Assembly: GCA_050952545.1 (NCBI GenBank)
Contig: JBMNLD010000003.1
Location: forward strand, 225,683 to 289,682
DNA length: 64,000 nt
Source: Christensenellales bacterium
GTDB lineage: Bacteria; Bacillota; Clostridia; Christensenellales; CAZKXV01
Direction: 5' to 3'
The translations under genes were made by a program, and so were the position numbers. Numbering within the stretch: position 1 is the stretch's first letter; every line of letters begins with the position of its first letter. Shown here piece by piece: positions 37,951-57,052 of this stretch. The notes below the pieces were generated by a model. That model saw only the letters and a list, made by a program, of their open reading frames with translations, ran no database searches and had not been told where the DNA came from.

Positions 37951-38780
37951 TCGGCTACGGGCAGCCTCAAGCCGAGTTCGTTATAGCGGTAATCCGTTAA
38001 TTTAACGCTGTCTACCGTAAAATCGTAAAAATCCTTAACGCCTGTGTCGATTTCAAATTTCGGCGCGTCGTACTGAGGGTTATTTATTATTTTCTTCACT
38101 GTGTCGATATGGCGGTCGTAAATATGCGCGTCCGCGATTACATGGACGAGCTCGCCCGCGACAAGACCGCTGACCTGCGCGAACATATGCATAAGCGCCG
38201 CGTACTGGACTACATTCCAGTTATTTGCAACGAGCATATCCTGGGAGCGCTGATTTAATATAGCGTTTAGTACATTGCCGCTTACATTGAATGTCATGGA
38301 ATATGCGCACGGATATAAATTCATTTCATTCAAATCGCTGTGGTTGTATATATTGCTTATTATCCTTCTGCTGTAAGGATTATGTTTCAAATCGTAAAGG
38401 ATTCTGTCCACCTGGTCGAACATTCCCTCGCGGTATTTATGCTTAATGCCGAGCTGATAGCCGTACGCCTTGCCGATCGAGCCGTTCTCGTCCGCCCACG
38501 CGTCCCAGATTCTTGAATTTAACTCCCTTACATTATTGGACTTTTTCTGCCATATCCAGAGCAGTTCGTCTACCGCCGCCTTAAAATTCGTCTTTCTTAT
38601 CGTAATTATCGGGAATTCTTTACTAAGGTCGTAACGGTTGACAATGCAGAATTTCTTGACGGTATGCGCGGGCGAATTGTCGTCCGCCCAGCGCGGACGC
38701 ACTTCGCGGTCAGTGTCCCACACGCCGTTATTCATTATATCCGTTACATTTTCAATAAAAATCTTATCGGCTATACTCAT
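37947..38780 (-). CDS. thyA: Thymidylate synthase (ThyA)
   Basis: ThyA-like sequence throughout. Start moved to the ATG at 38780, which forms an ATGA overlap with the upstream lipoprotein stop. Confidence 0.9.
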   Translation of the reverse strand: MSIADKIFIENVTDIMNNGVWDTDREVRPRWADDNSPAHTVKKFCIVNRYDLSKEFPIITIRKTNFKAAVDELLWIWQKKSNNVRELNSRIWDAWADENGSIGKAYGYQLGIKHKYREGMFDQVDRILYDLKHNPYSRRIISNIYNHSDLNEMNLYPCAYSMTFNVSGNVLNAILNQRSQDMLVANNWNVVQYAALMHMFAQVSGLVAGELVHVIADAHIYDRHIDTVKKIINNPQYDAPKFEIDTGVKDFYDFTVDSVKLTDYRYNELGLRLPVAE

Positions 38781-44200: not shown

Positions 44201-44824
44201 AACAAGCGTTAAATTCAATTCCTCGTCGGTGTAAAATTCAAGCGCGTCCGCTTCGTCCATATCGGGATACCCTAGTCCCGAGTAAATTTTCGACAGCTCT
44301 TTTCGAGTAACATTAGGGGCGGGCTTGCGCATTCCGTCACCCGAATATTCGTATGTCGCGTCGTTATATATATCGTGGTTTCCGAATATCACAAGCACCT
44401 GAAAATCCGGGTTTCCGTCCGCTCTTATATCGTTCTGCAGCTTTCTCAAGGCGTTTGCGATATCAATATGGCTTGCCCTCTCTCCGTCTTTAGCTAAATC
44501 TCCGGACAGCACAAGGTAATCCAGATCTTGCCCTTTCTCCCTGATACCTTCTAGAACTTTGATAAATATTGCGCTGTTTTCGATAAGTAATCTTGACTCC
44601 GCCCTCATATCCACGAGAAAATCCGCTTCGGGGTCAGTGCCGTTATAGCAATATCTTAAAGGGTAATAGTGCATATCCGTAATATGCGCGATACGTATCA
44701 CTCCTTCCTCTTCGTATTCGTCTTCGGCGCTTGTAATCAGGTTATTCGTCGCGGCAAATAAAGTAATTATCGAACACATTAAAACAATCGTGATAATCAA
44801 AAATCGGTTGAGTTTCTTCGCCAT
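41210..44824 (-). CDS. Cell-surface double metallophosphoesterase (calcineurin-like x2, purple-acid-phosphatase-type N-domain), C-terminal TM anchor
   Basis: Signal peptide 'MAKKLNRFLIITIVLMCSIITLFA'. Domain 1 motifs 'ITDMHY', 'SGDLAKDG', 'GNHD', 'GHMH'. Domain 2 motifs 'FADPQG', 'MGDNVD', 'TGNHE', 'GGHDH'. C-terminal hydrophobic helix followed by KKKR. Confidence 0.8.
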   Translation of the reverse strand: MAKKLNRFLIITIVLMCSIITLFAATNNLITSAEDEYEEEGVIRIAHITDMHYYPLRYCYNGTDPEADFLVDMRAESRLLIENSAIFIKVLEGIREKGQDLDYLVLSGDLAKDGERASHIDIANALRKLQNDIRADGNPDFQVLVIFGNHDIYNDATYEYSGDGMRKPAPNVTRKELSKIYSGLGYPDMDEADALEFYTDEELNLTLVPYDKDDDAYIHSNNAANLDIEWLYARKENYNSLKDYGHGELSYYVTSDKGVSFMMIDEEDSNAEDGHLLSATFTANIFDFFADCADSDDNYTKIIVLHHNIVPQHPLEDTMMAGFTVEDWVTVADFFADLGVRYSFSGHMHANSISHHISFNNNQITDIETGSSSSYAGGVRYSDISYGYIGDTYAEKLTTMLELTKEVDFGYIIDNEYLDDEFFTENRVDHLIEGKKCTDISEYAKIRIYENAIDNYMVKYLSPEIVPELLSMVKGYIPDKVMGLPLGSIKNSIDIIVDNLISEIETKVLDDYTYGGDNPICANGENKLFGFLEELVGEVRGLSITSRDDSIIEVFFFCLFAHIDGALYTSIDQLPSHIREGIDNLRNGSVVESLLEILLDKDKGVYKILAGLLTREMNLSEGLSANDMNLLNSLGGVLGIENFNVASVNLDKLVRAALSFLDIGLDIGTGTALDFVDTMLNSYLTKSFSTGLGQIAANALLAFAIDESPNVSYDDPIPITLSAGDEFTFIDIAREDNPTVANGKLPSMITVSFGEDPRTDKNFVWFTDKRVNATEIRYSEKEDMTGAVTVSGEFAVYAHTYAQIDVGVFATYGTGEIGRHSVELKNLKPGTEYYYQVGASGFGMGGYWSPVYSTATAPDDNKEFDILLFADPQGYTQSSYDEVFEVLNNIESVFINGYDFVISMGDNVDNSKNMAHYRYLLNTCPEFFANTTFVTATGNHESSSFVVDDSFNPSSADVVITPYNNSLLYYNVSAPEQNAATGLYYSFDYSGVHFTVLNTNDLENNKLSAAQVRWLEEDLANTDKAHKVVIMHKSLYSSGSHSFDIDVIEMRKQLTPIFYNNGVHLVLGGHDHTYSTTYYLDGEGEIARKGAYKSKIGDKGILFVTLGTIGDKFYNWQDNPDIPVRYGEELHAPTLSRPVFGRLYYDGEELYYEAYEYDLETGEINELKPKNNIIAIIAVVVGSSAVLSGGIAITVIHLKKKRAA

Positions 44825-44855: not shown

Positions 44856-44884
44856 ATTATACATTAAAAAAGGGGCGATTTCAA
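44856..44884 (-). promoter_or_regulatory. Sigma-70-like promoter of the phosphoesterase gene
   Basis: Minus strand TTGAAA, 17 nt spacer, TATAAT. GAGGTG RBS before the ATG at 44824. Confidence 0.5.
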
Positions 44885-44889
44885 GCCCC
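44866..44889 (-). terminator. Intrinsic terminator ending the ECF-aroK transcription unit
   Basis: Minus strand GGGGC-TTGAAATC-GCCCC followed by TTTTTT. A second weaker hairpin lies at ~44913-44936. Confidence 0.65.
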
Positions 44890-45065: not shown

Positions 45066-45509
45066 TCAACGGAAAATTATTATCTCGTCAGCGATTTTAC
45101 GGTATATGGGCAATCTTTCAAGATACAGCCGGTATAAATCGTCTTTGGATTTATCTTTTACCAGCGGTCTTGTCGTGTCTTCTACCAATCTATTCCATAT
45201 TATCTCGAAGTCCGTATCTACAAAAATTACGCGGCTGCTTGATTTTATCAGCTCGTAATTATATACGGGCGCGCCGCCGCCCAGATCCACTATTAAATTG
45301 TCTCCTTTATAAATTTTACGGAGCGTATCAGTCTCCGCCTTTCTGAAATACTCTTCGCCGTAAATTGCGAAAATCTCATTTATTGTAAGCTTCAGCGCTT
45401 TCTCGATTTCGGCGTCCGAGCTGACGAATTTTACTTTTAACTCGGTAGCTTTAGCTCTTGCAAGCGTGGATTTGCCCGATGCCATAAAGCCCGTGTAGGA
45501 AATATTCAT
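45066..45509 (-). CDS. aroK: Shikimate kinase
   Basis: 'GFMASGKST' P-loop, 'GEEYFRKAE', 'LGGGAP' and 'RPL' motifs. 147 aa. Confidence 0.75.
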   Translation of the reverse strand: MNISYTGFMASGKSTLARAKATELKVKFVSSDAEIEKALKLTINEIFAIYGEEYFRKAETDTLRKIYKGDNLIVDLGGGAPVYNYELIKSSSRVIFVDTDFEIIWNRLVEDTTRPLVKDKSKDDLYRLYLERLPIYRKIADEIIIFR

Positions 45510-45530
45510 ACGGGTATTATAGCATATATG

Positions 45531-46148
45531 TTATAAATCCCGCAATAATTTGTCATACAGCGCGCGGTATTCGTTAAGTCCCGCGCCGCGTCTTACGATT
45601 AATCTTTTAAGCGCGTTATTAAGTCTTGTCCCGTTAATACCCGTCTTGATGATTTCCCGAGCGTATATAAGCTTTACGCTTTCTTTTACGCCTTTATATG
45701 TTAAGGCGAATAAAATGTTATCCGAAAGGCTGTCACGATAATCGTATTCGTCCGAGGTTAGACGCATTTCGTCGTAATCTATTCCGTAAACGCTGTCCTT
45801 TACGATATAATTAGTGAAATTGTTATCGGTCTGAACATAACCCGCGGAAGATAAATTCAAAGTGTAATCGATAAGCATTCGCGCAAGGATTAACGCGCCC
45901 TCTTCGTCCGCTTTCAGAAATTTGTCCATATACGAGGCGCCTTTAATGTATTCCATATAGACAGTATCGTCCCTGATGCCGTACGCCTTGGCGACGGGCG
46001 CGTAAGGGTAAACGGCTGTCATCACCCCGTAGGCGTATTGCGCGGATTGCCCGCTCGGATAACATTTTATTACCGTATCCGACGCCGCATCGAGGTATAC
46101 GCGGTTTTTACCGTTTAATCGGATAAGATCAGCGTGATTTTCGGGCAT
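45531..46148 (-). CDS. Hypothetical small protein-kinase-like (PKL-fold) protein
   Basis: 205 aa. Catalytic-loop-like 'QTDNNFTNYIV' (DxxxxN) followed by 'YGIDYDE'. 34 nt overlap with the MobB-like gene. Confidence 0.4.
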   Translation of the reverse strand: MPENHADLIRLNGKNRVYLDAASDTVIKCYPSGQSAQYAYGVMTAVYPYAPVAKAYGIRDDTVYMEYIKGASYMDKFLKADEEGALILARMLIDYTLNLSSAGYVQTDNNFTNYIVKDSVYGIDYDEMRLTSDEYDYRDSLSDNILFALTYKGVKESVKLIYAREIIKTGINGTRLNNALKRLIVRRGAGLNEYRALYDKLLRDL

Positions 46149-46858
46149 TTGCGGTAACCCCTCAATTCGCGGGCAATTCCGTCTATTGTATTGAACAGCA
46201 CTTTGTCTACAAAGGGCGCGATTTCTATTTCTTTGCCGTCAATAATCAGCTTAACGCTGTTTTGCTCTAAAACGCAACGGCTTATATCCGCCTTGCCTTT
46301 GAGATACTCGCTCAGCAGCTGCCTGCAGCTCATTCCGCATTCGCCGCAACATTTTACGTCTATATCAGGCATTAATTCGGGCACCTTGGCTATGACCAGA
46401 TCCGCAAGCCTTGATATATCCTCAATTGCCGATATCAGCGGCAGTCCATCAATTTCGCCGCTTAGAGTGTTGGTTATCACGCCGCTTACGGCGAAAGTCA
46501 AATCGTTAATTATAAGCTCGTTGCGCTCTTTCGCTACGGCTATTCCCGGCGCGTTGATATAATTCACGCCCTCCAATATGACATAGTCTTCAGTGTAATG
46601 GCTTAATAGTCTGCGGATATCCATTTTGTAATTATACATTACATCTGTCTCGTAATATCCGAGCGCCGTGACCGTGTCCGCGCCCGCCTGTCTGTGGCGG
46701 TAGGTATTCTTGCCAGGCGTGTCCATCTTAAACTGCTTGTTATGAATTTCTTTAACGGTTCCCACGCTGAAGCCGCGCCGCTTCAATTCCGCGATAAGAC
46801 GCTCGATTGTCGTCGTTTTGCCCGAGCCCGTTCCGCCTGTTACCGTGAATACTTTCAT
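46115..46858 (-). CDS. MobB-like P-loop protein with Cys-rich C-terminal extension
   Basis: 'TGGTGSGKTT' Walker A and 'DTPGKNTYRHRQAGA' resemble MobB. The C-terminal half carries 'DVKCCGECGMSC'. Confidence 0.7.
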   Translation of the reverse strand: MKVFTVTGGTGSGKTTTIERLIAELKRRGFSVGTVKEIHNKQFKMDTPGKNTYRHRQAGADTVTALGYYETDVMYNYKMDIRRLLSHYTEDYVILEGVNYINAPGIAVAKERNELIINDLTFAVSGVITNTLSGEIDGLPLISAIEDISRLADLVIAKVPELMPDIDVKCCGECGMSCRQLLSEYLKGKADISRCVLEQNSVKLIIDGKEIEIAPFVDKVLFNTIDGIARELRGYRKCPKITLILSD

Positions 46859-46869
46859 AAATTTCTCCT

Positions 46870-47598
46870 TTAACTTGTATACATTACCATTAAAAACGCA
46901 ATTGAGAATATCAGAGTCGACATCATTATTATATAGTCAATAAATCTCAAATGCAATTGTCTTAGCATTGTCCGGTCCGGATACGCCCTGAAGCTTCTGG
47001 ATTCTATGGATTCGGACAGTTTTCTGCTCTTTATTATGCTTCCCGACAGCGCTGGCGAGAGAATATATGAGTATAGTTTAAGTTTATTCGTGAATTTCAA
47101 TTTCTTAATGTTTATGCCTCTCATTGAAATCGCGTTTAATCTGTTTCTTAACTCTTCGATAAATTGCGGGATAAATCTAAGCGCTACGGTGGTCATAAAA
47201 GCGATTTCATAAGGCACTCTTAATTTAATAAGCGCGTCCGTCATTTCTCTTCCCTTATTAGTCGAGGTAATCAAAGCGGCGAATATAATTACCAGCATTC
47301 TTAACGCAAATTCCGCGCCCGATATCAGTCCGCCCGTCGTAATCAGATAGAATGAGCCGATTTTTACCAGCGCGTAACCGCCCTTGACTACAAGGCTTTG
47401 CATAATTGATATAAATATTATCAAGGACATCAGTCCCTTGATTTTTATAAACGCCCTGACTATATTTACTTTCAGCAAGATATTTATGAGCATACTTGCC
47501 GCGGCAACAACGAGAAGATAAACATAACTTACGGACAATACCGACAGCGTGGACAGGAGGACTATTATTGTAAGCTTTGTTCTCGGGTCAAGTCTCAA
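46870..47598 (-). CDS. ECF transporter T component (EcfT/CbiQ family)
   Basis: 242 aa, 5-6 TM. Cytoplasmic helix region 'ALRFIPQFIEELRNRLNAISMRG'. Overlaps the upstream ATPase gene. Confidence 0.8.
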   Translation of the reverse strand: MRLDPRTKLTIIVLLSTLSVLSVSYVYLLVVAAASMLINILLKVNIVRAFIKIKGLMSLIIFISIMQSLVVKGGYALVKIGSFYLITTGGLISGAEFALRMLVIIFAALITSTNKGREMTDALIKLRVPYEIAFMTTVALRFIPQFIEELRNRLNAISMRGINIKKLKFTNKLKLYSYILSPALSGSIIKSRKLSESIESRSFRAYPDRTMLRQLHLRFIDYIIMMSTLIFSIAFLMVMYTS

Positions 47599-48241
47599 TT
47601 CTTCCGCCCTCCATATTAAGTCTTACTGCACAATTCAAATCCCCGATATTTTCTAAATCGTGGGTAATAATAAGCGCGCCGCCTCCCGCTGAAACAAATT
47701 CGTTCAATAACGCAGATAAAAACGCCCTGCCCTCTTTGTCAATAGCGGAATACGGCTCATCAAGCACCAGAAAGCGTATATCCCTGATAAAAAGCGTAGC
47801 AAGCGCTAACTTCTGCTTCTCGCCGCCGCTCAAAGTCAGCGGAAATCTGTTCTCTAACGGCTTTAAGTTGAATTTCTCTATAACTTCATCAATTTTTTTA
47901 TCGATTATATTATCGAGCGTACCCGTAATTTCGTACGGAAACGTTAATTCCTCTCTTACCGTTCCCGCAAAGAGCTGATGGTCGGGATTCTGAAACAGAT
48001 ATCCAATGAAAGACGAGATATCCGAAAGGGATTTTTTCTTGATGTCTTCGCCGCCCATTATTATTTGCCCCGAATCGGGTCTTATTATCCCGGCAATCAG
48101 CTTGGTAAGCGTGGTCTTGCCCGAGCCGTTTGCTCCCGTAAGCACATAATTAGCGCCGGAGTTAAAAGTATAATTTAATTCCCTTATTACCGGAGTTTTC
48201 TTGTTATATGAAAAGCTCACATTATCAAGCGCTATATTCAT
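47588..48241 (-). CDS. ECF transporter ATPase (EcfA-type, short)
   Basis: Walker A 'GANGSGKTT', signature 'LSGGEKQ', Walker B 'LVLDEP'. Confidence 0.85.
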   Translation of the reverse strand: MNIALDNVSFSYNKKTPVIRELNYTFNSGANYVLTGANGSGKTTLTKLIAGIIRPDSGQIIMGGEDIKKKSLSDISSFIGYLFQNPDHQLFAGTVREELTFPYEITGTLDNIIDKKIDEVIEKFNLKPLENRFPLTLSGGEKQKLALATLFIRDIRFLVLDEPYSAIDKEGRAFLSALLNEFVSAGGGALIITHDLENIGDLNCAVRLNMEGGRIET

Positions 48242-48885
48242 ACTGCTACTCCGTCAAGATTTATAAGTTTTGTCGCGATTTTAAGCTCTTCTGCGGCGTG
48301 CGTGACCATAATTACGGTATTCCCCTCCGCCGCATATTCTTTAAGAAAATTTATGACTCTCCCCTTTGCCCCCTTATCAAGACCGGAAGTGATCTCGTCC
48401 GCGATAAGAATTGCCGGCTTAGTGACAAGCGCTGCCGCAATGCCTATAAGCTGCTTTTCGCCGCCCGACAAGGATTGCGTGCCGCGCTCAAGCAGATGCA
48501 TTATATTCAGCTTATCCGCGACATGATTTATTCTTTCAATAATATTATCCCTTGAAAATCTCAGATTTTCAGGCGCGAACGCAAGCTCGTCCATTACATC
48601 CGCGGAGAAAATCCTGTTGTCCGAATCCTGAAATATTATTCCGATTTTTTCACATCTGTCTCTGACGGAAAGCATCGTGATATCCTCTCCGTCGATATAT
48701 ACGGCGCCGCTACAGACGGCACCGTCGGGAAATATTCCCGCGAGCGCAAGACACAGCGAGCTCTTGCCGCTGCCGTTTCTGCCGGTTACCGCGATTATTT
48801 CCCCGCTGTCCGCTTCAAATGAAAGCCCGGAAAACACTGTCGTTTCGCCGTAAGATATAGCAAGATTATCCGCGCTTATTCTCAT
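48238..48885 (-). CDS. ECF transporter ATPase (EcfA-type, short)
   Basis: Walker A 'GRNGSGKSS', signature 'LSGGEKQ', Walker B 'LIADEI'. Confidence 0.85.
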   Translation of the reverse strand: MRISADNLAISYGETTVFSGLSFEADSGEIIAVTGRNGSGKSSLCLALAGIFPDGAVCSGAVYIDGEDITMLSVRDRCEKIGIIFQDSDNRIFSADVMDELAFAPENLRFSRDNIIERINHVADKLNIMHLLERGTQSLSGGEKQLIGIAAALVTKPAILIADEITSGLDKGAKGRVINFLKEYAAEGNTVIMVTHAAEELKIATKLINLDGVAV

Positions 48886-49442
48886 GACAAAGCTATTTCG
48901 ACAAGCATCTTGACTCTGTTCTGACTGACGGAATCCAGCGCCTTGATTACGACAAAAGGTCCTCCGTCTTCTTCGGGCTTATTGTAAGCGAGGGCGTCTA
49001 TTCCTTTATTGAAAGGCTTGCCTTGAACAAGATACGCGATAAATACATTGTCCTCCGCCGTAATATCGCTTATCTGATACATCTTAACCATACCGTCTGA
49101 CGCGGTAAACTGCGCCGTTTCGTACAAAGACAAGTCAATGCCCATATTTGCCAGCAGGTCTTTAAGGTATATGCCCGTATAAGTCCTTTGTATCGGTGTC
49201 CTGCCGCTGGGCTTGTATACCGCATTAAATTCCACGGCGGGGCAATACTCCAATAATTCGTTGAGATTATATTCGCCGATTACGCTTTCGCCCGCCTTGA
49301 TTCTGATTATCTCGTTCTCGTAGATATCGCGGTTTTGTTCATTGTTATTAATAAATAGGATCAGCAATACGATAAAAGCTATCGTAAGCAGCGCAAAAAC
49401 GGATATAGCAATAATAGTTTTCTTATTTATCGGCGTTTTCAT
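48882..49442 (-). CDS. Signal-anchored exported protein with one molybdopterin-oxidoreductase-like (Oxidored_molyb-like) domain
   Basis: N-terminal TM 'IIAISVFALLTIAFIVLLILF'. Domain pattern 'YTGIYLKDLL...FTASDG...FIAYLVQGKPF...GGPFVVI...VKMLVEIAL'. Confidence 0.55.
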   Translation of the reverse strand: MKTPINKKTIIAISVFALLTIAFIVLLILFINNNEQNRDIYENEIIRIKAGESVIGEYNLNELLEYCPAVEFNAVYKPSGRTPIQRTYTGIYLKDLLANMGIDLSLYETAQFTASDGMVKMYQISDITAEDNVFIAYLVQGKPFNKGIDALAYNKPEEDGGPFVVIKALDSVSQNRVKMLVEIALS

Positions 49443-50869
49443 TTGGCAATAACATAGTAGGGCACATACATATCGCCCGTTTCGAATACGCCGTGTCTGC
49501 CCGTAAGAGTATCGCCTTGGACTGTTACGGAGCCGTGATCGGGGACAATGATTATCTTGCCGTCGAAATTCTCCATAAGCGTCTTGGTATATTGCTCTAT
49601 CTCAAGTATTTTATCAAGCGCCTGATCGGATAGAGGCGAGTAATCGTGATTAGCGTCGTCAATACCGTGAAAATGCACGAAAATAAAATCGGGATTATTA
49701 TTCAATTCGTCCATAGCGCTTTGAAAAACATTTCCATCCGTATAGCCGTCAGAGTCCGGGGCATTATATTCAGGAATAATATTCGTGAGGATTAAATTGC
49801 TGTTTCCCTCTATATAACTGACGCTTTTGCCTTTTTCAACCGCATAGTCGAATATATCCTGACTGGCGGGTCTATTGACACCGCGTTTGGTAATCTCGGT
49901 ATAGCGCGGCGATTTGCCCGTGACAATTGCGGCAAGGGCGACATTGGATATCGCGGGATTTACGCTCGCAGCCTTAATGTAGCCGCTCTTAAAGAGAGTT
50001 AATTGGTCGTTAAAATGCTCCGCCTGCCCGTATGAAAAGCCGTCTGGCAGGATAACCATCACTCTTTCGCCTGAATCCACCGCCTGCTTTATATCGTAAT
50101 ACGCGTCCAATATCAGCGTATCCGTGCCGGTTACGATTCCCGTAAGGGATTCGTATATTTTACCGTCTTCCTTATAAGCCAATCTGCCCCCGCTCCATAT
50201 CAGGTTGCCGCCGCCCTCTACGATAATATCGTAATTGTGAAAGTATAAGATGTTCTCGTCTTCGCCGGTGAACTCTTTGACTGAAACGGCTTTAGGCATA
50301 TGCTTATATACGGGTACTCCTTTTAATGTGCTTTGGGCGACCTCCTCGAATAATACGCTCTTGACATTGCCATAAGACATCACGCTGTGCCCGTCTTCTT
50401 TGACTATCTTCAGCCCCTGATTGATTTCGCTCTCGGATATTACGCTGATATCCAAGATATCCTTAATTCCCGCGGCAGGCGGATGCGAGGGCGCTTTCAG
50501 GTCGGCTTTGCCGTCGTTTATTATGATATAACAAAGCGACGCGTCGGTAAAGTTAATCCTTGCGCTGACTCCGTCCGACGCCGTTATCATCAGGTAATTC
50601 TCGTCGGACAATAAAATCGCGGGATCGATTACTTCATCAAGACGGTAACCTTCGGTGTTAACTTCCGTTCCCTCCTTATCGGTATAAGTAAACGCGCGTT
50701 TTTGTAATTTAAGCAAATCGATTTCACGGTAATACGACTCGATATCGCCCGACAAAATTATTAAAAATTCTTCATTTTTTTCGGGCGGCGTCTTGTCGCA
50801 CGCTATTAGTGACAGCGTTAAGATTATCAACAATACCGCAATAAATGATTTTTTATTCATCTTTATCAT
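49439..50869 (-). CDS. Lipoprotein: N-terminal Oxidored_molyb-like domain(s) plus alkaline-phosphatase-superfamily (nucleotide pyrophosphatase/phosphodiesterase-type) domain
   Basis: Lipobox 'LIAC'. 'ILPDGFSY', 'NPAISNVALAAIVTGKSP', 'HFHGIDDANHDYSP' and 'VPDHG...GRHG' resemble the NPP/AlkP metal and nucleophile motifs. An alternative start is the ATG at 50860. Confidence 0.6.
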   Translation of the reverse strand: MIKMNKKSFIAVLLIILTLSLIACDKTPPEKNEEFLIILSGDIESYYREIDLLKLQKRAFTYTDKEGTEVNTEGYRLDEVIDPAILLSDENYLMITASDGVSARINFTDASLCYIIINDGKADLKAPSHPPAAGIKDILDISVISESEINQGLKIVKEDGHSVMSYGNVKSVLFEEVAQSTLKGVPVYKHMPKAVSVKEFTGEDENILYFHNYDIIVEGGGNLIWSGGRLAYKEDGKIYESLTGIVTGTDTLILDAYYDIKQAVDSGERVMVILPDGFSYGQAEHFNDQLTLFKSGYIKAASVNPAISNVALAAIVTGKSPRYTEITKRGVNRPASQDIFDYAVEKGKSVSYIEGNSNLILTNIIPEYNAPDSDGYTDGNVFQSAMDELNNNPDFIFVHFHGIDDANHDYSPLSDQALDKILEIEQYTKTLMENFDGKIIIVPDHGSVTVQGDTLTGRHGVFETGDMYVPYYVIAK

Positions 50870-51431
50870 CGCCTTTTATATTTTTTCTGAAAAGTCCGGT
50901 ATTTATCACCTTAGTATAAGTCAGGTAACCGATAAAGCCGCCGATTACTCCGGAAAACGCTGCGGATGTCAGCGTGAAGAGAAGCGGCAGCCAGGACATT
51001 CTGAAAAACAATAAATTGCTGCCGTAAGTGCCGAGCATATTGGCGAGCATCACGGAGAATATGAAATGCAGCACATTTACGCCTTTAACGCGGATAAAAA
51101 ATACCACCTCCACGACAATTGCGGGAGTGAGATATGTAAGGAAAGTCCATACTCCGTGAGTGCCGGGCGTATTAGTGATTAAGAGCACTACGGACTGCAC
51201 CAGAGATACTAAAAACGCCGCTCCGCGCTTGTCGATAATCGCAATACCGAGAGCCATCCACAGCATATAGAATCCGCCCGCCAGGGCTCCTCCGGGAATG
51301 CCGAGGGAGCCCGTCAGCAGCCGCACCAGAACGCCCGCGATTACCTTAACGGCAATTGTTATAGCGGACAGCATCGCAATAAGAATCAAGTCGTATGCGG
51401 TAAATTTCTGCAAAAACTTTCTCGATGCCAT
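50853..51431 (-). CDS. ECF S-component-like integral membrane protein
   Basis: 192 aa, about 6 TM. N-terminus 'FTAYDLILIAMLSAITIAVKV' is typical of ECF substrate-capture subunits. Confidence 0.55.
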   Translation of the reverse strand: MASRKFLQKFTAYDLILIAMLSAITIAVKVIAGVLVRLLTGSLGIPGGALAGGFYMLWMALGIAIIDKRGAAFLVSLVQSVVLLITNTPGTHGVWTFLTYLTPAIVVEVVFFIRVKGVNVLHFIFSVMLANMLGTYGSNLLFFRMSWLPLLFTLTSAAFSGVIGGFIGYLTYTKVINTGLFRKNIKGDDKDE

Positions 51432-51450
51432 CCGCGTAAATCCTTCAAAT

Positions 51451-52371
51451 TCACCTGTTTACGGTAATCGTAGCAACCTGTCTGATAGATTTGGACTCCG
51501 AGTCCGGCGTTAAATCGTAAGCCCTTATCGGCCCGTCTTCATCGTCAAGAGCCTCGTACTCCTCTCCGTCGGCAGAAATCTCTATCGCTAAATACGATTG
51601 TTCAAGATTTGCTTTCAAATACGGCGATGTCTTGGTTATATCCTCGCCGTAGCCGTCTCTGCCTACAATCTTAAGGCTTACAACGCTCTCCGTGTCAAAA
51701 TCCGAAAGGCTTTCGAGTAAATCCGCGATCACATAGCCCTTATAGTATTCTGTCTCATTATTTTTTTTGATAACGGAGAACTCCTCAAGCTCTAAGCTCT
51801 CGAGCTCGCTGAGACCTATCTTGTATGTGTCGTCGCCGTCGTTAATTACGAAAAGCTCTCTGTTGACATCGGCATAGTCAATTTGGCTTATCGACTTAAC
51901 TCCCGATCCTGCCGTCGCGTCATAAAGCCTTGCGGGTCCGTCATCAGTCAGCGCCGTGTACTCTCCGTCCTCGGTCGCAGAGGATAATATCACTATATAA
52001 GCGTTCGCGAAATTCTCTCTCGGCAGTGCGGGCTTATCGGAGCCGAAGCCGTCAGTACCCACAAAACGCAGGCTGTCGATATTGTCCTTATCAGTTAGAT
52101 TCGCTATCTTTCCGAGCATATCCGAGACCTTAAAGCCTTTATAGTAAACGGTTTCGCCGCTCTTCTTCTGGGTCGAATACGGATGTAAAGCGATACCATT
52201 CATAAGCTCGTCCGTAACTTCTATCTCGCTTTCGCCGTCATTAAGGGTGAAGGAAAAATCGGGAAGTGTATCGGTAGTCTTATCAGCGGGCTTCTCGCAC
52301 GCGGTAAGCGCCATGACTGATAACGCGAAGATTATCAGTATCAGCGTTTTTAAGTTAAACAGTTTTTTCAT
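51451..52371 (-). CDS. Lipoprotein with two tandem Oxidored_molyb-like domains
   Basis: Lipobox 'LTAC'. Internal repeat 'YYKGFKVSDML...VGTDGFG...DGPARLYD' and 'YYKGYVIADLL...VGRDGYG...DGPIRAYD'. Confidence 0.55.
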   Translation of the reverse strand: MKKLFNLKTLILIIFALSVMALTACEKPADKTTDTLPDFSFTLNDGESEIEVTDELMNGIALHPYSTQKKSGETVYYKGFKVSDMLGKIANLTDKDNIDSLRFVGTDGFGSDKPALPRENFANAYIVILSSATEDGEYTALTDDGPARLYDATAGSGVKSISQIDYADVNRELFVINDGDDTYKIGLSELESLELEEFSVIKKNNETEYYKGYVIADLLESLSDFDTESVVSLKIVGRDGYGEDITKTSPYLKANLEQSYLAIEISADGEEYEALDDEDGPIRAYDLTPDSESKSIRQVATITVNR

Positions 52372-52385
52372 TTTTCTCTCCTTTG

Positions 52386-53609
52386 TTATTTTATTTCTAT
52401 AGATTTTAAGTTAAGGGTATTGTCGCCGTATTTAAGCACATAATTTGCGCCGCTCTTTTCAAGAGTCGAGTTTTTTAGAACCGCGCCCGTTATTTGATAT
52501 TCGGTGCCGTTTGTGTCAAATACGGCGTAAGTTTCGTCATCGGGCAGATTTACCTGTGTAAGAATGTCGCCAAAGCTTATTTTATCGTCCGAATTTTCGT
52601 CAAATTTCTCATAGGCTACCTGAAGAGACATAAGCGCGGTCTTGCCTACGGAGACAGAAAGCGTGTTCTTTACGCTCATTCCGTCTAATATATTCTCGCC
52701 CGTAAACAGCGGAGCCCTCTCGTAGTCTAGCATCTCGCCTTCGCCTTCTTGGTACCTGAAAGCTAAGAAAGCATTGCTGTAATGATCATAGATTTTCAAA
52801 TTCTTGTATTCGCGGTAAAATCCCGTCGTGCCGTTAGTCACATAATCCCACGCGCTGATAAACATTTTATCCGAGGTCTCACCCTGCAATATTTCCGCGT
52901 CTAATAATTTCTCAAGACTTATACCGTAATATGTAACCGCTACGGTATTGCCGCCGATGTTCTTTTCCTTAACGACGCTGTCGTAGTATTGCTCGCCTAT
53001 AAACTCCATAAATATCAGTTTTTCGGTATCGGGAGGCGTTAATTCGTCAAAGCCTAAAGTAACTTTCTTTAATTTCTTTACCCATGCGCCGTTGTTCTGA
53101 TTGGGAATAACCGCCCTTAACGAGCCGCTTTTTTGAGTTTGGTCTAATACATGGCCGTCATACTCATATGCGATAATAACTTTGTTTCCGCCGTCATCTT
53201 CATTGAAAACATCGTTGGTAACAAGCGTCCAATAACCGTCTTCCGCCTCCAGGGTTATTGAATAAAAGGAGGCGGACAGAATGCCGTCGGCGTATTCGTC
53301 CAATATATCGTCGAGATAAACGCCCTTTAAGGTATGCGGTATTAAATTTCCGTCGTCGTCCGTTTTGTCCGAAGCGTAACAGGGATTGTCGTCGGTGTAT
53401 TCAACGGCTTTGGTCTCGCCGAGCGCCTTTATCTGCGCCTTTGTTACGGTAATTACATCCGTTGTTATTCCGTATATCTCCAATGTGTACTCTTCATCGG
53501 ATTGCGTCTCGCCGGGCGTCGGGGTCTCTGGCGCTTCATCGGGAGTGCAGGCGCAAAGCAGCGTTAAAGCAACTAATGCAAGAATTAATATGTACGAAAG
53601 TTTCTTCAT
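52386..53609 (-). CDS. Lipoprotein with Oxidored_molyb-like domain(s) plus extra C-terminal domain
   Basis: Start moved to the ATG at 53609 (GGAGGA RBS; 'MKKLSYILILALVALTLLCAC' lipobox). 'LKGVYLDDIL...EAEDGYW...IIAYEYDGHVL...GSLRAVIPNQNNGAWVKKLKKVTL' follows the sulfite-oxidase/YedY-type domain pattern. Confidence 0.55.
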   Translation of the reverse strand: MKKLSYILILALVALTLLCACTPDEAPETPTPGETQSDEEYTLEIYGITTDVITVTKAQIKALGETKAVEYTDDNPCYASDKTDDDGNLIPHTLKGVYLDDILDEYADGILSASFYSITLEAEDGYWTLVTNDVFNEDDGGNKVIIAYEYDGHVLDQTQKSGSLRAVIPNQNNGAWVKKLKKVTLGFDELTPPDTEKLIFMEFIGEQYYDSVVKEKNIGGNTVAVTYYGISLEKLLDAEILQGETSDKMFISAWDYVTNGTTGFYREYKNLKIYDHYSNAFLAFRYQEGEGEMLDYERAPLFTGENILDGMSVKNTLSVSVGKTALMSLQVAYEKFDENSDDKISFGDILTQVNLPDDETYAVFDTNGTEYQITGAVLKNSTLEKSGANYVLKYGDNTLNLKSIEIK

Positions 53610-53620
53610 AAGTTTCCTCC

Positions 53621-53656
53621 AAAAAAAATGCTCTTTTTCAATGCGAAAAAGAGCAT
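53621..53656 (-). terminator. Leader intrinsic terminator (attenuator) immediately upstream of the ECF operon RBS
   Basis: Minus strand ATGCTCTTTTTC-GCATT-GAAAAAGAGCAT followed by 7 T. The competing hairpin GCGAAAAGG...CTTTTTCGC shares its 5' arm. Confidence 0.75.
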
Positions 53657-53749
53657 ATCCTTTTCGCAATGGAAGGTATATAGATTTCTCTTTATGCCCT
53701 GTCGTTCCTGCCTCCGTAGCGTTGCCTTAGGACGGCGGAATTCGGATAT
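53657..53749 (-). promoter_or_regulatory. Candidate riboswitch/leader sensor region, class not identified
   Basis: About 90 nt lie between the predicted TSS and the terminator. The region contains CCGCCGU...ACGGAGG pairing and GGAACGACAGGGCAUAAAG. Its position fits a cis-regulatory RNA. Confidence 0.35.
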
Positions 53750-53755
53750 AAAAAT

Positions 53756-53785
53756 ATTATATCATTAAATTACGGCTGCGGTCAA
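53756..53785 (-). promoter_or_regulatory. Sigma-70-like promoter of the ECF operon
   Basis: Minus strand TTGACC (53785-53780), 18 nt spacer, TATAAT (53761-53756). Confidence 0.6.
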
Positions 53786-53808: not shown

Positions 53809-54300
53809 TTACTTATTATACCAGTCGACAATCGTATTTACGGCGTTAATCACAGCCTTGCAGGAATATGTCGCGCCAGTTACATAGAGAATGTCTACGC
53901 CCTCGATAGGCTTTGCGCCGCCGGCAAATTTATCTAATCCCGAGATGTTTTTATCGACAAATTGATTTAAGAAACTATCCTTAAAAGCCTTCTCTCCACG
54001 TCCCTTTTCCGTTATATCGTAACCCGAAACGGCTAAAATTACGCCGTTTTCAATAAGCGCGACGATTTTAACATCACCGTTATAGCCGCCCGTTCCGAGC
54101 GCGGAGACTATAATTCTGTCCTCTTTTACAAATACTTTTAATATCGAGCCGTCATCGGTATCAAAAGGCTCGAAACTCTCTTCGGCATATCCTTCCGGAT
54201 TATCCACAAGTGAGACGATATCCTCAGTATCTTCTTTACATGCGGACAGCGGCAGAGCAATCGTTAATAATAAAATTATTAAGATAATTATCTTTCTCAT
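53809..54300 (-). CDS. FMN-binding-domain lipoprotein (RnfG/NqrC-like, flavinylation motif present)
   Basis: Lipobox 'LSAC'. C-terminal 'GVDILYVTGATYSCKAVINAV' matches the FMN_bind [S/T]GA[S/T] covalent flavinylation motif. Confidence 0.8.
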   Translation of the reverse strand: MRKIIILIILLLTIALPLSACKEDTEDIVSLVDNPEGYAEESFEPFDTDDGSILKVFVKEDRIIVSALGTGGYNGDVKIVALIENGVILAVSGYDITEKGRGEKAFKDSFLNQFVDKNISGLDKFAGGAKPIEGVDILYVTGATYSCKAVINAVNTIVDWYNK

Positions 54301-54899
54301 AATTTCACCTTAGTAAAGGTAAGACTATTCAGGTCAATCAACAACAGTTCGCGCCTGAGCGAGGGGGCGCCGGTCAGCGTTTTCAGCGCTTCCGAGGCTT
54401 CAAGGGCGGCAACCAACGCCGGAACATATGACATAGTCTTAGAAACACTTATTTCGCGGTCTTTATAAATATATTTTAAGGTATAATCCCCCGGCATTAT
54501 TGTAGTAACCTGTCCGAAAGCGCCGTTAATCGCGCCATGCACAAGCGGTATACCGCGATTTGCGGCGTATTCTTCGAGCAGAAGTCTGTCTTTTACATTG
54601 TCAAGGCAATCGACAATTATATCCGCATTGATACCGTCGATGATATCATTAGGGAAAAACTCATTAACGGCGAAAGCGTCAGTCCTCGAGATTTTCTTAA
54701 TTCTTTCAGCGGCTGCTTGCGCCTTAAATTTCCCGAGATTTTCATAGGCGCTATAAAGCTGACGGTCCAGATTACTCTCGTCAAAGACATCGCCGTCCAT
54801 GATTACGAGCTTTGCGATATTCAGTCTCGCGAGGTACTCGACGACATAACCGCCGAGCCCGCCCGCTCCGATAATAATTGCCGTCTTGTCAAGAAGCAT
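54297..54899 (-). CDS. ThiF/MoeB/HesA-family E1-like adenylyltransferase (short, 200 aa)
   Basis: Rossmann 'IIGAGGLGGYVVEYLARLNIAKLVIMDGDVFDESNLDRQ'. No C-terminal CxxC or rhodanese part. Confidence 0.75.
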   Translation of the reverse strand: MLLDKTAIIIGAGGLGGYVVEYLARLNIAKLVIMDGDVFDESNLDRQLYSAYENLGKFKAQAAAERIKKISRTDAFAVNEFFPNDIIDGINADIIVDCLDNVKDRLLLEEYAANRGIPLVHGAINGAFGQVTTIMPGDYTLKYIYKDREISVSKTMSYVPALVAALEASEALKTLTGAPSLRRELLLIDLNSLTFTKVKL

Positions 54900-54900
54900 A

Positions 54901-55149
54901 TCAGCCTCCGCCCGACGGAGACATCATAAGCACCCTGTCACCGTCGTTTAATCTTACTCTGCTCTTGAAAAGCCCCTTTACCGCTTTATCGTTAATGAAA
55001 AAGACCGCGTTAGCAATTTCCTCTTTTTCAAGACAGGAAAACCTCTTGGAAATCTCGTTTATAAGTTCTTTGAGGTTATCAGCTTCAATTAAGATTTCCG
55101 CGGTCTTAAACGCCATTCTGTAATTTCCGAAAAATTCAACCTTAATCAT
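54901..55149 (-). CDS. MoaD/ThiS-family small sulfur-carrier-like protein
   Basis: 82 aa ending '...SPSGGG' (C-terminal Gly-Gly). Overlaps the AOR stop by 8 nt. Confidence 0.65.
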   Translation of the reverse strand: MIKVEFFGNYRMAFKTAEILIEADNLKELINEISKRFSCLEKEEIANAVFFINDKAVKGLFKSRVRLNDGDRVLMMSPSGGG

Positions 55150-57052
55150 TGAATATTTTATCTAGTTTTAATGCCTTTAACTTGGACTTTTTAACCATGC
55201 CCATGCTGTCCCAGCCTCTTATATGGTAATAGGATTTGACCATTTTGTTAATAGGCACTCTGGACTTTTTATCGTCGGGGTCTTGTAATTCTTCCGTGGC
55301 TCTTTTAGGCAAGGTGTCGTCCGCTCTGCTTACGCCGAGCTTGGTGTTGATGAGCCTTTCAAGATTATAGCCTCTCTCTCCTATGGACATAAGCCTGCCG
55401 AAATTTAATTTCATGCCCGTAGCCGCGGATATTGCCAGCGGATGCGGCAGCATAGCGGAGAGGTTTATTTGCAGCAGCCATGGCATTTTGTTGACAAACC
55501 ATACGAACGGCCCCGTATACGGCAACACTTTATTGACAATCCTAGACACTACGGAATTGCGTTTATTAATCAGGAAATACGGGAAGAAAGCGTATGTCGT
55601 GAACAGACAGCTGCCGCCCGCGGATACCGCCTCCATAAGATTCTGAAACATTATTGCCAGATTAGCCTTGCCCGCTCTCGTACGCTGATTTATCGTAAGC
55701 CCTAGGCCCTCCAATACCACCATATAGCCCGCGTTAAGGTGACAGCCGCCCCTGTTGGATGTCGCGTACCCAAGACCCTGTCCGTAAGCGCCTCTCGGCT
55801 CATACGCGGCAAGCTCCATGCCCTTGGCTTGCATCGCGAATTCCTCGCCGCCGTACTTATACGACAACCATCTTGAACCGTTGGCGAGCTCGTCGCCGAT
55901 TCCCTTTCTCAAAGCAATATCTTCAAAGACCTTGCTTATATTATCCGTCTTTCCGAATGAAAGTTCGGACTTTAGCAAGCCCTTTTCGTTTAATTCCATA
56001 GCAAAGGATATTGTACCCGCCGCGGAGATTGTATCTATTCCGAGTTCGTCGAGTTCGTAATTCCACTTGAATATCAATTCGATGTTATTATTCAAGATAT
56101 TCGGGCCGAGAAGTCCGAGCGTCTCGAGTTCGGGGCCTTTTACTTCCTTGTCCCCGACGCGCACTACCCTTGCGCATTGTATCGGGCAGCTTACGCAGCC
56201 TTTATTCCTGATTAAATGATTTTCGGCAAGTTCCTCGCCCGAAACCATTTTGTAATCGTCGAATTTGCCCGCCGAGAAATTTTTGGTCGACAAGAGATTT
56301 CTTTGCTGCATCATAGAGACCAGCCCCGCCGTGCCGAGTTGCGGGAGCTGCTTGCCCGTCAGCGGATGCGTCTGAAGCCTATTAATCCATTTCTTGTTGA
56401 TCTTATCGAGTTTTTCCTTATCGTATGCCACGGGCGCCTTAACGCCGTACGCTACGACGGCTTTTATGTTCTTGCTCCCGAATACTGCACCGACGCCGCC
56501 CCTTCCCGACACTCTCTCCTGCGAGACAAGGCAGGAATAATACACTTTATTTTCGCCAGCGGGGCCTATTACTAGCTTGCCGCTCTTACCTCCCAGAGCC
56601 TCTTGGGCATCTCCTGTCTTCATTCCCCAGAGGTTATCTGCGGATTTGAATTCCACGCCGTCCTCGGTTATTTCGAGATAAATCCTGTCTCTGCTCTTAC
56701 CCGTAATTATAACCGCGTCATAGCCTGCCCGCTTTAAGTGAATTCCGAAATTGCCGCCCGAATTGCTCGAGGTCAGAAGATTGGTAAGCGGCGATATCGT
56801 AGACACATTAAACCTTGAAGAGCTGGGGCAGTTCATGGCGTTAAGCGGCCCCGTGGAAATGACGATGACATTTTGTTCGGACAGAGGGTCAATGGGCCCC
56901 TTGATAAAATCCGAGATGATTTTCGCCGCCATAATTTTGCCGCCGAGGTACAACTGCCTGTAGCGGTCCGAAAAAGGGTATTCCTTTACTTCCTTGGAAG
57001 ATAAGTCGATTAGTATTACTTTACCCGTATAACCTTTATATTTTGTAGCCAT
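55142..57052 (-). CDS. aor: Aldehyde:ferredoxin oxidoreductase (AOR family, tungsto/molybdo-pyranopterin enzyme)
   Basis: 636 aa. N-terminus 'GYTGKVILIDLS'. [4Fe-4S] motif 'GCVSCPIQC' and 'GGCHLNAGY'. Confidence 0.9.
   Translation of the reverse strand: MATKYKGYTGKVILIDLSSKEVKEYPFSDRYRQLYLGGKIMAAKIISDFIKGPIDPLSEQNVIVISTGPLNAMNCPSSSRFNVSTISPLTNLLTSSNSGGNFGIHLKRAGYDAVIITGKSRDRIYLEITEDGVEFKSADNLWGMKTGDAQEALGGKSGKLVIGPAGENKVYYSCLVSQERVSGRGGVGAVFGSKNIKAVVAYGVKAPVAYDKEKLDKINKKWINRLQTHPLTGKQLPQLGTAGLVSMMQQRNLLSTKNFSAGKFDDYKMVSGEELAENHLIRNKGCVSCPIQCARVVRVGDKEVKGPELETLGLLGPNILNNNIELIFKWNYELDELGIDTISAAGTISFAMELNEKGLLKSELSFGKTDNISKVFEDIALRKGIGDELANGSRWLSYKYGGEEFAMQAKGMELAAYEPRGAYGQGLGYATSNRGGCHLNAGYMVVLEGLGLTINQRTRAGKANLAIMFQNLMEAVSAGGSCLFTTYAFFPYFLINKRNSVVSRIVNKVLPYTGPFVWFVNKMPWLLQINLSAMLPHPLAISAATGMKLNFGRLMSIGERGYNLERLINTKLGVSRADDTLPKRATEELQDPDDKKSRVPINKMVKSYYHIRGWDSMGMVKKSKLKALKLDKIFND

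Follow-up and report, generated by a model that had tools for sequence, protein, structure and literature searches.

The operon described here, eleven genes on the minus strand of a 64,000-nucleotide stretch of DNA from a Christensenellales bacterium (contig JBMNLD010000003.1, positions 225,683 to 289,682; hereafter the window, in whose own numbering all positions are given), unites parts that resemble several described systems. Its membrane core recalls YkoEDC, the dedicated energy-coupling factor (ECF) importer for thiamine or hydroxymethylpyrimidine: both place an S component, a T component, and two ATPases in one riboswitch-controlled operon, and the S component of the window falls in the same Pfam family (PF09819) and aligns best with the thiamine-type structure 5EDL. 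The window operon differs from YkoEDC in carrying a molybdenum cofactor/tungsten cofactor (Moco/Tuco) riboswitch instead of a thiamine pyrophosphate (TPP) riboswitch, an S component that is 17% identical to 5EDL, and short ATPases (~215 aa), as well as extra exported binding domains, a phosphodiesterase, a MobB-type protein with an Fe-S motif (MobB-FeS), and a kinase-like protein; in some relatives the S component is fused to additional domains.

The exported domains resemble PruR (structures 7KOS, 7KOU, and 7KOM), an exported SUOX fold that lacks the Mo-ligating Cys and binds reduced pterins (PMC13259868); like PruR they are small, exported, and Cys-less, and PruR is their best profile match and among their best structural matches. 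PruR acts in signaling and pairs with DcpA or sensor-kinase regulators in Proteobacteria, whereas the domains considered here belong to a transporter operon of Gram-positive bacteria and occur in multiple copies or arrays and in fusions to nucleotide pyrophosphatase/phosphodiesterase (NPP), FMN_bind, S-layer homology (SLH), or S-component domains. At the Cys position PruR has a Trp where these proteins mostly have Thr, Ser, or Pro, and no GGDEF/EAL or DTB partner gene is found in the operon; the missing Trp and the missing DcpA or DTB partner make these domains relatives of PruR and not orthologues. With the sulfite oxidase family (SorA, chicken sulfite oxidase [SO], and YedY/MsrP) they share the Moco-domain fold and PF00174, but they have no catalytic Cys, active-site loop, or dimerization domain and leave the cell as Sec substrates or lipoproteins instead of by twin-arginine translocation. 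The transporters TupABC, ModABC, WtpABC, and type II MolBCA share the riboswitch regulon and, presumably, the task of supplying W/Mo enzymes, and they adjoin the cluster in some loci, but they have a periplasmic-binding-protein architecture and an inorganic substrate, with no kinase, phosphodiesterase, or pterin-fold domains. Surface binding domains also feed a membrane importer in the Isd NEAT-domain heme relay and in B12 capture by BtuG/BtuH, and some Ni/Co ECF systems have extra components; here the likeness is one of function only, as folds and substrates are unrelated and none of these systems has a pterin-type domain.

To our knowledge, Moco and the tungsten cofactor (Wco) are generally treated as cofactors that each bacterium must make and that are too labile to share. 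Caenorhabditis elegans takes up dietary Moco made by another organism (PMC7849362), but this is an animal system whose transporter is unknown, and full-text literature searches returned no bacterial counterpart; nor did they return any account of a Moco riboswitch that controls an ECF system or of a bacterial transporter for Moco or molybdopterin (MPT). A comparative study of riboswitch regulons has categories for uptake of the coenzymes B12, thiamin, riboflavin, queuosine, and folate but none for Moco (PMC3766115), and a survey of flavinylation mentions neither molybdenum nor ECF (PMC8238504). Judging from gene content and regulation, the operon of the window is somewhat more apt than not to salvage a pyranopterin cofactor or a fragment of one (MPT, Moco/Wco, or molybdopterin guanine dinucleotide [MGD]). 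The broader claim, that it is the first system known by which bacteria take up the molybdopterin/tungsten cofactor, be it intact or in a dinucleotide or dephospho form, and that the cofactor could be shared as a community "vitamin," we put a little short of an even chance.

Operon organization and the importer core

An ORF (open reading frame) listing reproduced the eleven tightly packed, co-directional minus-strand genes (53609 to 45066) and the three ATGA junctions on which the initial annotation had been built, and a consensus scan recovered both the TTGACC-18-TATAAT promoter and the leader terminator that it had described. With promoter, leader, and terminator the genes form one operon whose junctions are overlaps of 4 to 34 nt or gaps of at most 21 nt. 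Its first gene starts at the ATG at 53609, which has GGAGG in front of it, and a longer ORF starting with TTG extends into the leader. In order of transcription, with hidden Markov model (HMM) or other evidence for each, the features are as follows.

53756..53785, minus strand: promoter of the sigma-70 type, TTGACC-18-TATAAT extended by TG; agrees with the consensus at 11 of 12 positions and is the top-scoring site in the scanned region
53641..53759, minus strand: Moco/Tuco riboswitch aptamer (RF01055), P3-less variant; 49.1 bits against a gathering score of 36, E = 1e-8
53620..53667, minus strand: expression platform; antiterminator 53667-53658 pairs with 53652-53643, with a rival terminator hairpin at 53656-53628 and a T8 run
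52386..53609, minus strand: LP1, lipoprotein whose N-terminal domain has the SUOX fold and whose C-terminal half has no assigned fold; PF00174 (Oxidored_molyb) E = 1.4e-8, above the Pfam cutoff; 14-nt gap to LP2
51451..52371, minus strand: LP2, lipoprotein with two diverged SUOX-fold domains; iterated domain HMM, residues 34-166 (8e-10) and 172-305 (4e-15); 19-nt gap to S
50853..51431, minus strand: S, ECF S component with six transmembrane helices and a YkoE-type fold, a distinct subfamily; PF09819, E = 1.2e-11; 17-nt overlap with PDE
49439..50869, minus strand: PDE, lipoprotein that joins a SUOX-fold domain at its N terminus to an NPP-type phosphodiesterase/pyrophosphatase at its C terminus; PF01663, E = 2.4e-10; 4-nt ATGA overlap with OxM5
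48882..49442, minus strand: OxM5, signal-anchored, single SUOX-fold PruR-like domain; PF00174 E = 7e-4, below the cutoff, with the fold given by AlphaFold2 (AF2) and Foldseek; 4-nt ATGA overlap with A
48238..48885, minus strand: A, ECF ATPase of 215 aa; ABC_tran 8e-26, TIGR04520 (ECF_ATPase_1) 1e-46, under the equivalog cutoff; 4-nt ATGA overlap with A'
47588..48241, minus strand: A', ECF ATPase of 217 aa; ABC_tran 7.5e-31, TIGR04520 1.9e-46; 11-nt overlap with T
46870..47598, minus strand: T, ECF T component (CbiQ/EcfT); PF02361, E = 1e-26; 11-nt gap to MobB-FeS
46115..46858, minus strand: MobB-FeS, MobB-type P-loop NTPase with a Cys-rich Fe-S motif and a conserved C-terminal domain; PF03205 1.8e-24, TIGR00176 78.9 bits against a cutoff of 76.2; 34-nt overlap with Kin
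45531..46148, minus strand: Kin, small protein-kinase-like (APH/RIO/Bud32-type) phosphotransferase; weak Bud32 similarity; 21-nt gap to aroK
45066..45509, minus strand: aroK, shikimate kinase, co-transcribed in the window; SKI, E = 2.7e-34
44872..44889, minus strand: intrinsic terminator closing the operon, 3' of aroK; GGGGC...GCCCC followed by a T run

Because S, T, A, and A' share one operon, we assign the cluster to the dedicated (group I) ECF-type ABC importers, an assignment made at the level of sequence. The AF2 model of the S component (this and the other AF2 models were built on homologues from a protein search) has six helices at a pLDDT (predicted local distance difference test) of 85, and its best match in the PDB is the thiamine-type S component 5EDL (TM-score 0.75, 17% identity), followed by ThiT and RibU; PanT was also matched, and no metal-type S component (CbiM or NikM) was among the matches listed. 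The S-family sequence profile had no hit in the PDB at E <= 1, so that the YkoE link comes from the fold comparison alone. By Pfam the S component falls in the YkoE-type family, though its relationship to YkoE itself is remote. None of the findings that the initial annotation had named as refuting its interpretation was obtained, and that interpretation is supported in part. The S component is represented by 56 clusters at 90% identity in 5.8 billion sequences, and an exhaustive profile search found 389 clusters of the family at 50% identity among 1.84 billion representatives. Both ATPases carry LSGGEKQ and have ECF_ATPase_1 as their best NCBIfam match, yet they cover only the first 200 to 210 of the 269 EcfA model positions (1-210 in A), lack the C-terminal region, and score below the equivalog cutoffs. 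This short length (~215 aa) is kept across the related loci.

A genome scan located relatives of the S component in 367 species genomes, and 80 loci were fetched and examined, the denominator varying with the count (80 loci, 82 distinct loci, or 87 loci). These loci belong to Christensenellaceae, Syntrophomonas, Tissierellaceae, Sedimentibacter, Alkaliphilus, Anaerovirgula, "Candidatus Formimonas," Desulfoscipio, and some Actinomycetota. Gene order was compared by BLAST synteny, and the fast-evolving Kin was traced by iterated HMM searching. The survey of gene neighborhoods called for in the initial annotation found the same order in 80 independent loci: the core is S, OxM5, A, A', T, MobB-FeS, and the kinase-like protein, and the full order is SUOX-domain lipoproteins, S, PDE, OxM5, A, A', T, MobB-FeS, and Kin, with the lipoproteins, PDE, and Kin not in all loci. 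The 80 loci are from Clostridia and some Actinomycetota. Frequent accessories are further SUOX-domain lipoproteins or surface arrays, the NPP-SUOX fusion, and flavin-binding surface proteins. A minimal form (L001-L003) retains S, A, A', T, MobB-FeS, Kin, and the riboswitch and has no exported protein.

A Moco/Tuco riboswitch in the leader

The leader had been read as an attenuator, and one possibility raised with that reading was a B12, TPP, or flavin mononucleotide (FMN) riboswitch. Terminator and antiterminator are indeed present, but the leader contains an aptamer as well, with a match to the Moco/Tuco riboswitch RF01055 that is the sole Rfam match in the 64-kb window, and the same scan found no TPP, tetrahydrofolate (THF), B12, FMN, or other riboswitch there. 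In the cmscan alignment the P3 stem is deleted, an architecture that Regulski et al. correlated in 2008 with tungsten-cofactor metabolism (PMC2408646). A covariance model built from four copies and searched against 84 sources found 61 related copies, none of which (0/61) has an insert at the P3 position; across them 91.7% of cells are paired, compensatory changes occur in 23 of 25 pairs, and a terminator-like hairpin follows in 53. At least 54 of 82 distinct loci have a P3-less riboswitch upstream in the same orientation, which is a lower bound because most loci counted without a copy end too soon on the upstream side.

The antiterminator is formed by GCGAAAAGGA, the 3' strands of P5 and P1, which pairs with UCUUUUUCGC, the 5' arm of the terminator, at -13 kcal/mol; the terminator is present in the minimum free energy (MFE) fold of the leader. 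Since the antiterminator shares these P5 and P1 strands with the aptamer, stabilization of the aptamer by ligand would free the terminator, and the riboswitch should accordingly act as a transcriptional OFF switch in which bound ligand favors termination, with the operon predicted to be expressed when the cofactor is scarce. The operon is a member of the P3-less Moco/Tuco riboswitch (Mo/W-cofactor) regulon, and the leader ties it to Mo/W-cofactor homeostasis more firmly than does the neighboring gene for a tungsten-type aldehyde:ferredoxin oxidoreductase (AOR). We know of no demonstration of direct ligand binding for the Moco/Tuco riboswitch class. The evidence of Regulski et al. for its ligand is genetic and correlative (PMC2408646). 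In two loci tandem P3-less riboswitches precede the cluster (L087, 3435-3552 and 3599-3713; L079, 530-650 and 767-887), which recalls the triple arrangement reported in Syntrophomonas wolfei (PMC2408646).

Exported SUOX-fold domains

OxM5 is the most conserved extracytoplasmic component of the cluster, and a copy with 100% identity is annotated from a Christensenellales metagenome-assembled genome. Its AF2 model (pLDDT 91) retrieved SorA (4e-7) and PruR 7KOM (7e-7) with Foldseek, as well as chicken SO, YedY, 7KOU, and 7KOS, and the TM-score to PruR is 0.65-0.67 when normalized to PruR; the best solved relatives of the OxM5-family sequence profile are two PruR-type proteins. Modeling and structure comparison thereby bear out the description of these regions as exported molybdopterin-oxidoreductase-like domains, in the form of the SUOX Moco-domain fold. 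Where six repeat domains had been counted, however, we could demonstrate five: LP1, PDE (at its N terminus), and OxM5 have one each, and LP2 has two. The domain of LP1 matches the OxM5 family with an hhalign probability of 98.3% and that of PDE matches OxM5 with 94.7%, whereas hhalign found no further SUOX domain beyond the N-terminal half of LP1.

The domains are short (~130-150 aa). In an HMM alignment to sulfite oxidase 6Y0K, Thr, Ser, or Pro stands at the position of the Mo-ligating Cys and the next 17-residue loop is deleted; among 49 OxM5-type sequences none has a Cys in this column, and among 305 domain copies 1 does, the column holding T, S, P, N, or D. The exported SUOX-fold domains are therefore not expected to be enzymes of the sulfite oxidase family and are better described as predicted noncatalytic proteins. 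The Tyr of the OxM5-family DGY motif aligns with the PruR Tyr in LNDY, a correspondence that is only suggestive, and a direct phmmer search of the LP1 domain against the PDB, made for alignment with the C-terminal Trp of PruR, returned noise only. Close homologues of LP1 share a near-invariant acidic loop, ASDKTDDDGNxIPHTxKG (LP1 residues 79-96), at the site of the SUOX Mo-ligand loop, which could bind a metal ion or a ligand.

All four exported proteins have Sec-type lipoprotein or signal-anchor N termini: LP1 begins MKKLSYIL..LLCAC with the lipobox LLCAC, LP2 begins MKKLFNL..LTAC with the lipobox LTAC, and PDE begins MIKMNKK..LIAC. None, LP1 included, has a twin-arginine motif, and the proteins thus leave the cell unfolded and cofactor-free.

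Related loci have a median of 4 SUOX-domain copies, and a single protein can hold up to 10. Syntrophomonas-type loci encode giant exported proteins of ~2,500-2,700 aa upstream of the ECF genes, with 9 or 10 tandem Cys-less SUOX-fold domains:

L055, 341-8380: giant SUOX-array protein
L030, 849-8342: giant SUOX-array protein
L041, 968-8512: giant SUOX-array protein
L047, 494-8428: giant SUOX-array protein, behind a riboswitch

Regulski et al. noted in 2008 that P3-less riboswitches precede "sulfite oxidase" genes in S. wolfei (PMC2408646), an anomaly for which the system described here probably accounts. Array versions in Sedimentibacter and Tissierellaceae have 4 SUOX domains, and a SUOX-domain neighbor protein in Sedimentibacter (L036, 788-1957) bears SLH cell-wall anchors.

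Phosphodiesterase, MobB-FeS, and the kinase-like protein

PDE scores 41 bits against PF01663 (cutoff 23) and matches PglZ as well. Its family has the invariant residues D276, H399, D404, H408, D444, H445, and H459, a complete NPP catalytic set that upholds the annotation of an exported phosphodiesterase. The best solved relative is the Xanthomonas NPP 2GSN, with which the PVT motif aligns at the nucleophile motif and the nucleophile Thr is aligned.

The MobB-like call proved sound, with PF03205 detected and TIGR00176 above its cutoff; MobB/FeS equivalog models (PRK14494) score under their cutoffs for the window protein. The Walker A motif GxxGxGKT is invariant, as are C170, C171, C174, C178, and C195, and MobB-FeS was detected in 73 ORFs of the related loci.

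The Kin protein of the window alone matches no Pfam family, and a homologue search with it found only itself, so the family was defined from locus-derived alignments. Within this family D108, N113, and D124 are invariant and K28 and E39 nearly so, which gives the Lys-Glu pair, the DxxxxN loop, and the metal-binding Asp of an intact, APH/RIO-like catalytic core and agrees with the earlier call of a kinase-like ORF. Against the PDB the family profile finds small kinases, RIO2, Bud32, and amicoumacin kinase at 1e-6, and Pfam APH (PF01636) is matched by 29 of 47 family members. Iterated HMM searching places Kin in 66 of 87 loci, nearly always directly after MobB-FeS.

Fusions and neighboring Mo/W and flavin genes

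Natural fusions join the S component to NPP phosphodiesterases (P0083, P0087, and P0091) and, through an extra transmembrane helix, to SUOX domains (P0084, P0093, P0094, and P0137). In one further protein (P0208) a MobA-like domain, an S component, and a SUOX domain are fused; the N-terminal domain matches MobA models only (NCBIfam), below cutoffs. This single case is seen in locus L092 (153-1790) as one 545-aa ORF, its S component divergent, with an NTPase_1 (THEP1-like) P-loop gene after it on a contig too short to show more of the neighborhood. No MobA-like gene occurs within 10 kb of the cluster in the loci examined.

Two features lie directly upstream of the operon in the window:

53809..54300, minus strand: FMN_bind lipoprotein with VTGATYS, directly upstream of the operon promoter at the end of the AOR-MoaD-ThiF operon; PF04205, E = 1.8e-7
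54297..57052, minus strand: operon of a tungsten-type AOR, a MoaD/ThiS-like protein, and a ThiF/MoeB-like protein; AFOR_N, AFOR_C (1.8e-112), ThiS, and ThiF

The VTGATYS of the FMN_bind lipoprotein is of the motif type flavinylated by ApbE, and the protein is likely an accessory extracytoplasmic flavoprotein. Exported proteins of the FMN_bind type occur in 32 of 82 loci and in several of them (e.g., L024 and L045) stand between the riboswitch and an LP1-like gene; an FMN_bind+SUOX-domain fusion is found in L036, and 9 loci encode NapH-like Fer4_5+FMN_bind membrane proteins and 4 encode ApbE. AOR genes adjoin the cluster in the window and in 4 of 82 loci (L016, L026, L037, and L060), with the same AOR/ThiS/ThiF trio in L037. 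The link to AOR made from the window is thus real there but was overstated as a general property of the system.

In Anaerovirgula multivorans a riboswitch-controlled, TupABC-like operon (PBP_like_2, BPD_transp_1, and an ABC ATPase; L080, 16161-18793, minus strand) adjoins the ECF cluster. A second P3-less Moco/Tuco riboswitch in L004 (16946-17062) controls a type II ABC importer (FecCD permease, ATPase, and Peripla_BP_2) that is possibly a MolBCA-like W/Mo system. Such MolBCA-like operons lie beside the cluster in L004 and L045 and further in L056, L069, L072, and L087, some of them merged into the ECF operon; DUF364/DUF4213 "heavy-metal chelation" proteins are often encoded with them, as is a TiaS-TCKD-like protein, and L045 and L069 add an FmdE-like protein. 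No moa, moe, or mog genes were found in the scanned 17 to 64 kb of the window or among the genes called elsewhere on its 78-kb contig, a result whose scope is the contig and not the genome. In the loci examined no moa or moe family recurred near the cluster, the count covering 10 kb around it.

The likely substrate

If the operon salvages a pyranopterin cofactor, substrate released by other cells would be captured and relayed at the surface by the Sec-exported, cofactor-free SUOX-fold domains, and the NPP enzyme would strip off a nucleotide or phosphate. Surface flavoproteins, where present, could hold the pterin reduced, and the S component would import the product with power from EcfAA'T. 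Inside the cell the kinase may re-phosphorylate or otherwise activate the import, and MobB-FeS would pass it to the metal-insertion or guanylylation machinery and from there to enzymes such as the neighboring AOR. We infer this ligand from folds, fusions, and regulation, and favor it because a vitamin-type S fold, cofactor-free exported domains of pterin type, NPP fusions, a conserved kinase, flavin partners, and a MobA fusion are features of vitamin salvage. The intact, fused NPP enzyme and the conserved APH-type kinase favor an organic, phosphorylated substrate, and the FMN_bind proteins and FMN_bind+SUOX fusion suggest that it is redox active.

Several points weigh against such salvage. Moco and MPT are chemically labile outside proteins. 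Cleavage of MGD by an NPP enzyme would leave MPT phosphorylated, so that the need for a kinase is not fully explained, and repression by the riboswitch fits tungstate uptake equally well. The MobA-like fusion is known from one divergent metagenomic protein, encoded on a contig of 2.6 kb, and the OxM5 of the window itself lacks the consensus Tyr and Trp of its family (M118 and R176). The truncated pocket of PruR is reported to be probably unable to hold full Moco (PMC13259868); the domains in the window are also truncated, and a smaller pterin or a cofactor fragment may therefore be the true ligand. MPT-synthesis genes have been reported in S. wolfei (PMC2408646), whose genus is among our loci, and together with the MoaD-like and MoeB-like proteins of the window they indicate that salvage would supplement synthesis, and not replace it, in at least some carriers.

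The main rival explanation is a high-affinity ECF-type importer of tungstate or molybdate, in which the SUOX domains would bind the oxyanion, the S component would import it, and MobB-FeS would serve as a metal chaperone toward MoeA. Riboswitch repression is what would be expected of metal uptake, TupABC- and MolBCA-like operons carry the same type of riboswitch (L080, L004, and L045), the AOR neighbors require tungsten, the Asp-rich loop of LP1 is near-invariant, and MobB is a P-loop NTPase like the G3E metallochaperones. We nevertheless regard it as unlikely, as an oxyanion would call for neither a conserved APH-type kinase nor an NPP enzyme fused to a binding domain or to S, the S fold is nearest to the vitamin type with no CbiM or NikM among the matches listed, the FMN_bind+SUOX fusions suggest a redox-active ligand, and the MobA-like+S fusion points to a substrate of MobA. 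Moreover, canonical tungstate transporters already adjoin the cluster, and the presence of TupABC- and MolBCA-like operons beside it argues against simple redundancy with metal transport. Slightly less probable again is another organic nutrient, either a non-molybdenum pterin (neopterin-, monapterin-, or biopterin-like) or a phosphorylated vitamin precursor, with the riboswitch sensing it or cross-regulating its uptake. PruR binds small tetrahydropterins in a pocket reported to be probably too small for Moco and the domains of the operon are about as short, Pfam assigns the S component to the YkoE family, thiamine kinase is itself an APH-family enzyme, and the ligand evidence for the riboswitch is genetic or correlative. 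This explanation has to contend with the absence of any TPP, THF, or other riboswitch from the window, with the conservation of MobB in the operon and the existence of a MobA-like fusion, and with AOR, TupABC-like, MolBCA-like, and FmdE neighbors that indicate Mo/W-cofactor metabolism. Thiamine itself, a candidate on account of the YkoE family and the APH-type kinase, was ruled out by the riboswitch class, MobB, and the Mo/W neighbors.

It is also conceivable, if very improbable, that the SUOX proteins are extracytoplasmic redox enzymes fed by FMN proteins and that the ECF module exports their cofactor or loads it outside. Many loci have FMN_bind lipoproteins, NapH-like Fer4_5+FMN_bind proteins, and ApbE, the FMN_bind+SUOX fusions would suit such an arrangement, and Listeria RibU/FmnA is reported to export flavin adenine dinucleotide (FAD), a precedent for an ECF system moving a cofactor outward (PMC9973259). 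But the Mo-ligating Cys and active-site loop are missing in essentially all copies, a switch turned off by abundant cofactor is the wrong logic for an enzyme that consumes it, the minimal L001-L003 form keeps core and riboswitch without an exported protein, and neither the phosphodiesterase nor the kinase would have a role. We regard the system as an ECF vitamin-type importer with a presumed new class of substrate and with unprecedented extracytoplasmic and cytoplasmic partners.

Should a conserved, riboswitch-controlled salvage system prove true, the Mo/W-pterin would become a tradable micronutrient like B12 or thiamine, which would change how Moco auxotrophy is called from genomes. The pterin-binding domains, the candidate pterin kinase, and the transporter would be possible reagents for research on Moco deficiency, and the poorly understood MobB gains a conserved set of genomic partners. 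If the substrate is tungstate instead, the operon would encode the first ECF-type oxyanion importer.

Other genes of the window

The last gene of the operon had been taken as a further member of the system. It does encode a shikimate kinase and is part of the operon here, but an aroK homologue was found in 0 of 87 related loci in the synteny survey, and aroK was ruled out as a system component because it occurs in this window alone. The same window carries an EPSP synthase gene (aroA; 22056-23351, plus strand) and a thymidylate synthase-dihydrofolate reductase pair (37465-38861, minus strand), neither with an evident functional tie to the cluster.

Immediately 3' of the operon, behind a promoter-like site of its own, is the gene for a 1204-aa exported, C-terminally anchored protein (41210-44824, minus strand) that has an N-domain of the purple-acid-phosphatase type and matches calcineurin-like phosphoesterases twice. 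In L005/L071 and L050 homologues are encoded close to the cluster, and this protein is a possible extracellular phosphatase partner, with a weak association. At the other end of the window, and seen through an annotated copy of the contig (L090), a pyruvate formate-lyase-like glycyl-radical enzyme of 830 aa is encoded together with a radical S-adenosylmethionine activase and a GntR regulator (2435-5853, minus strand).

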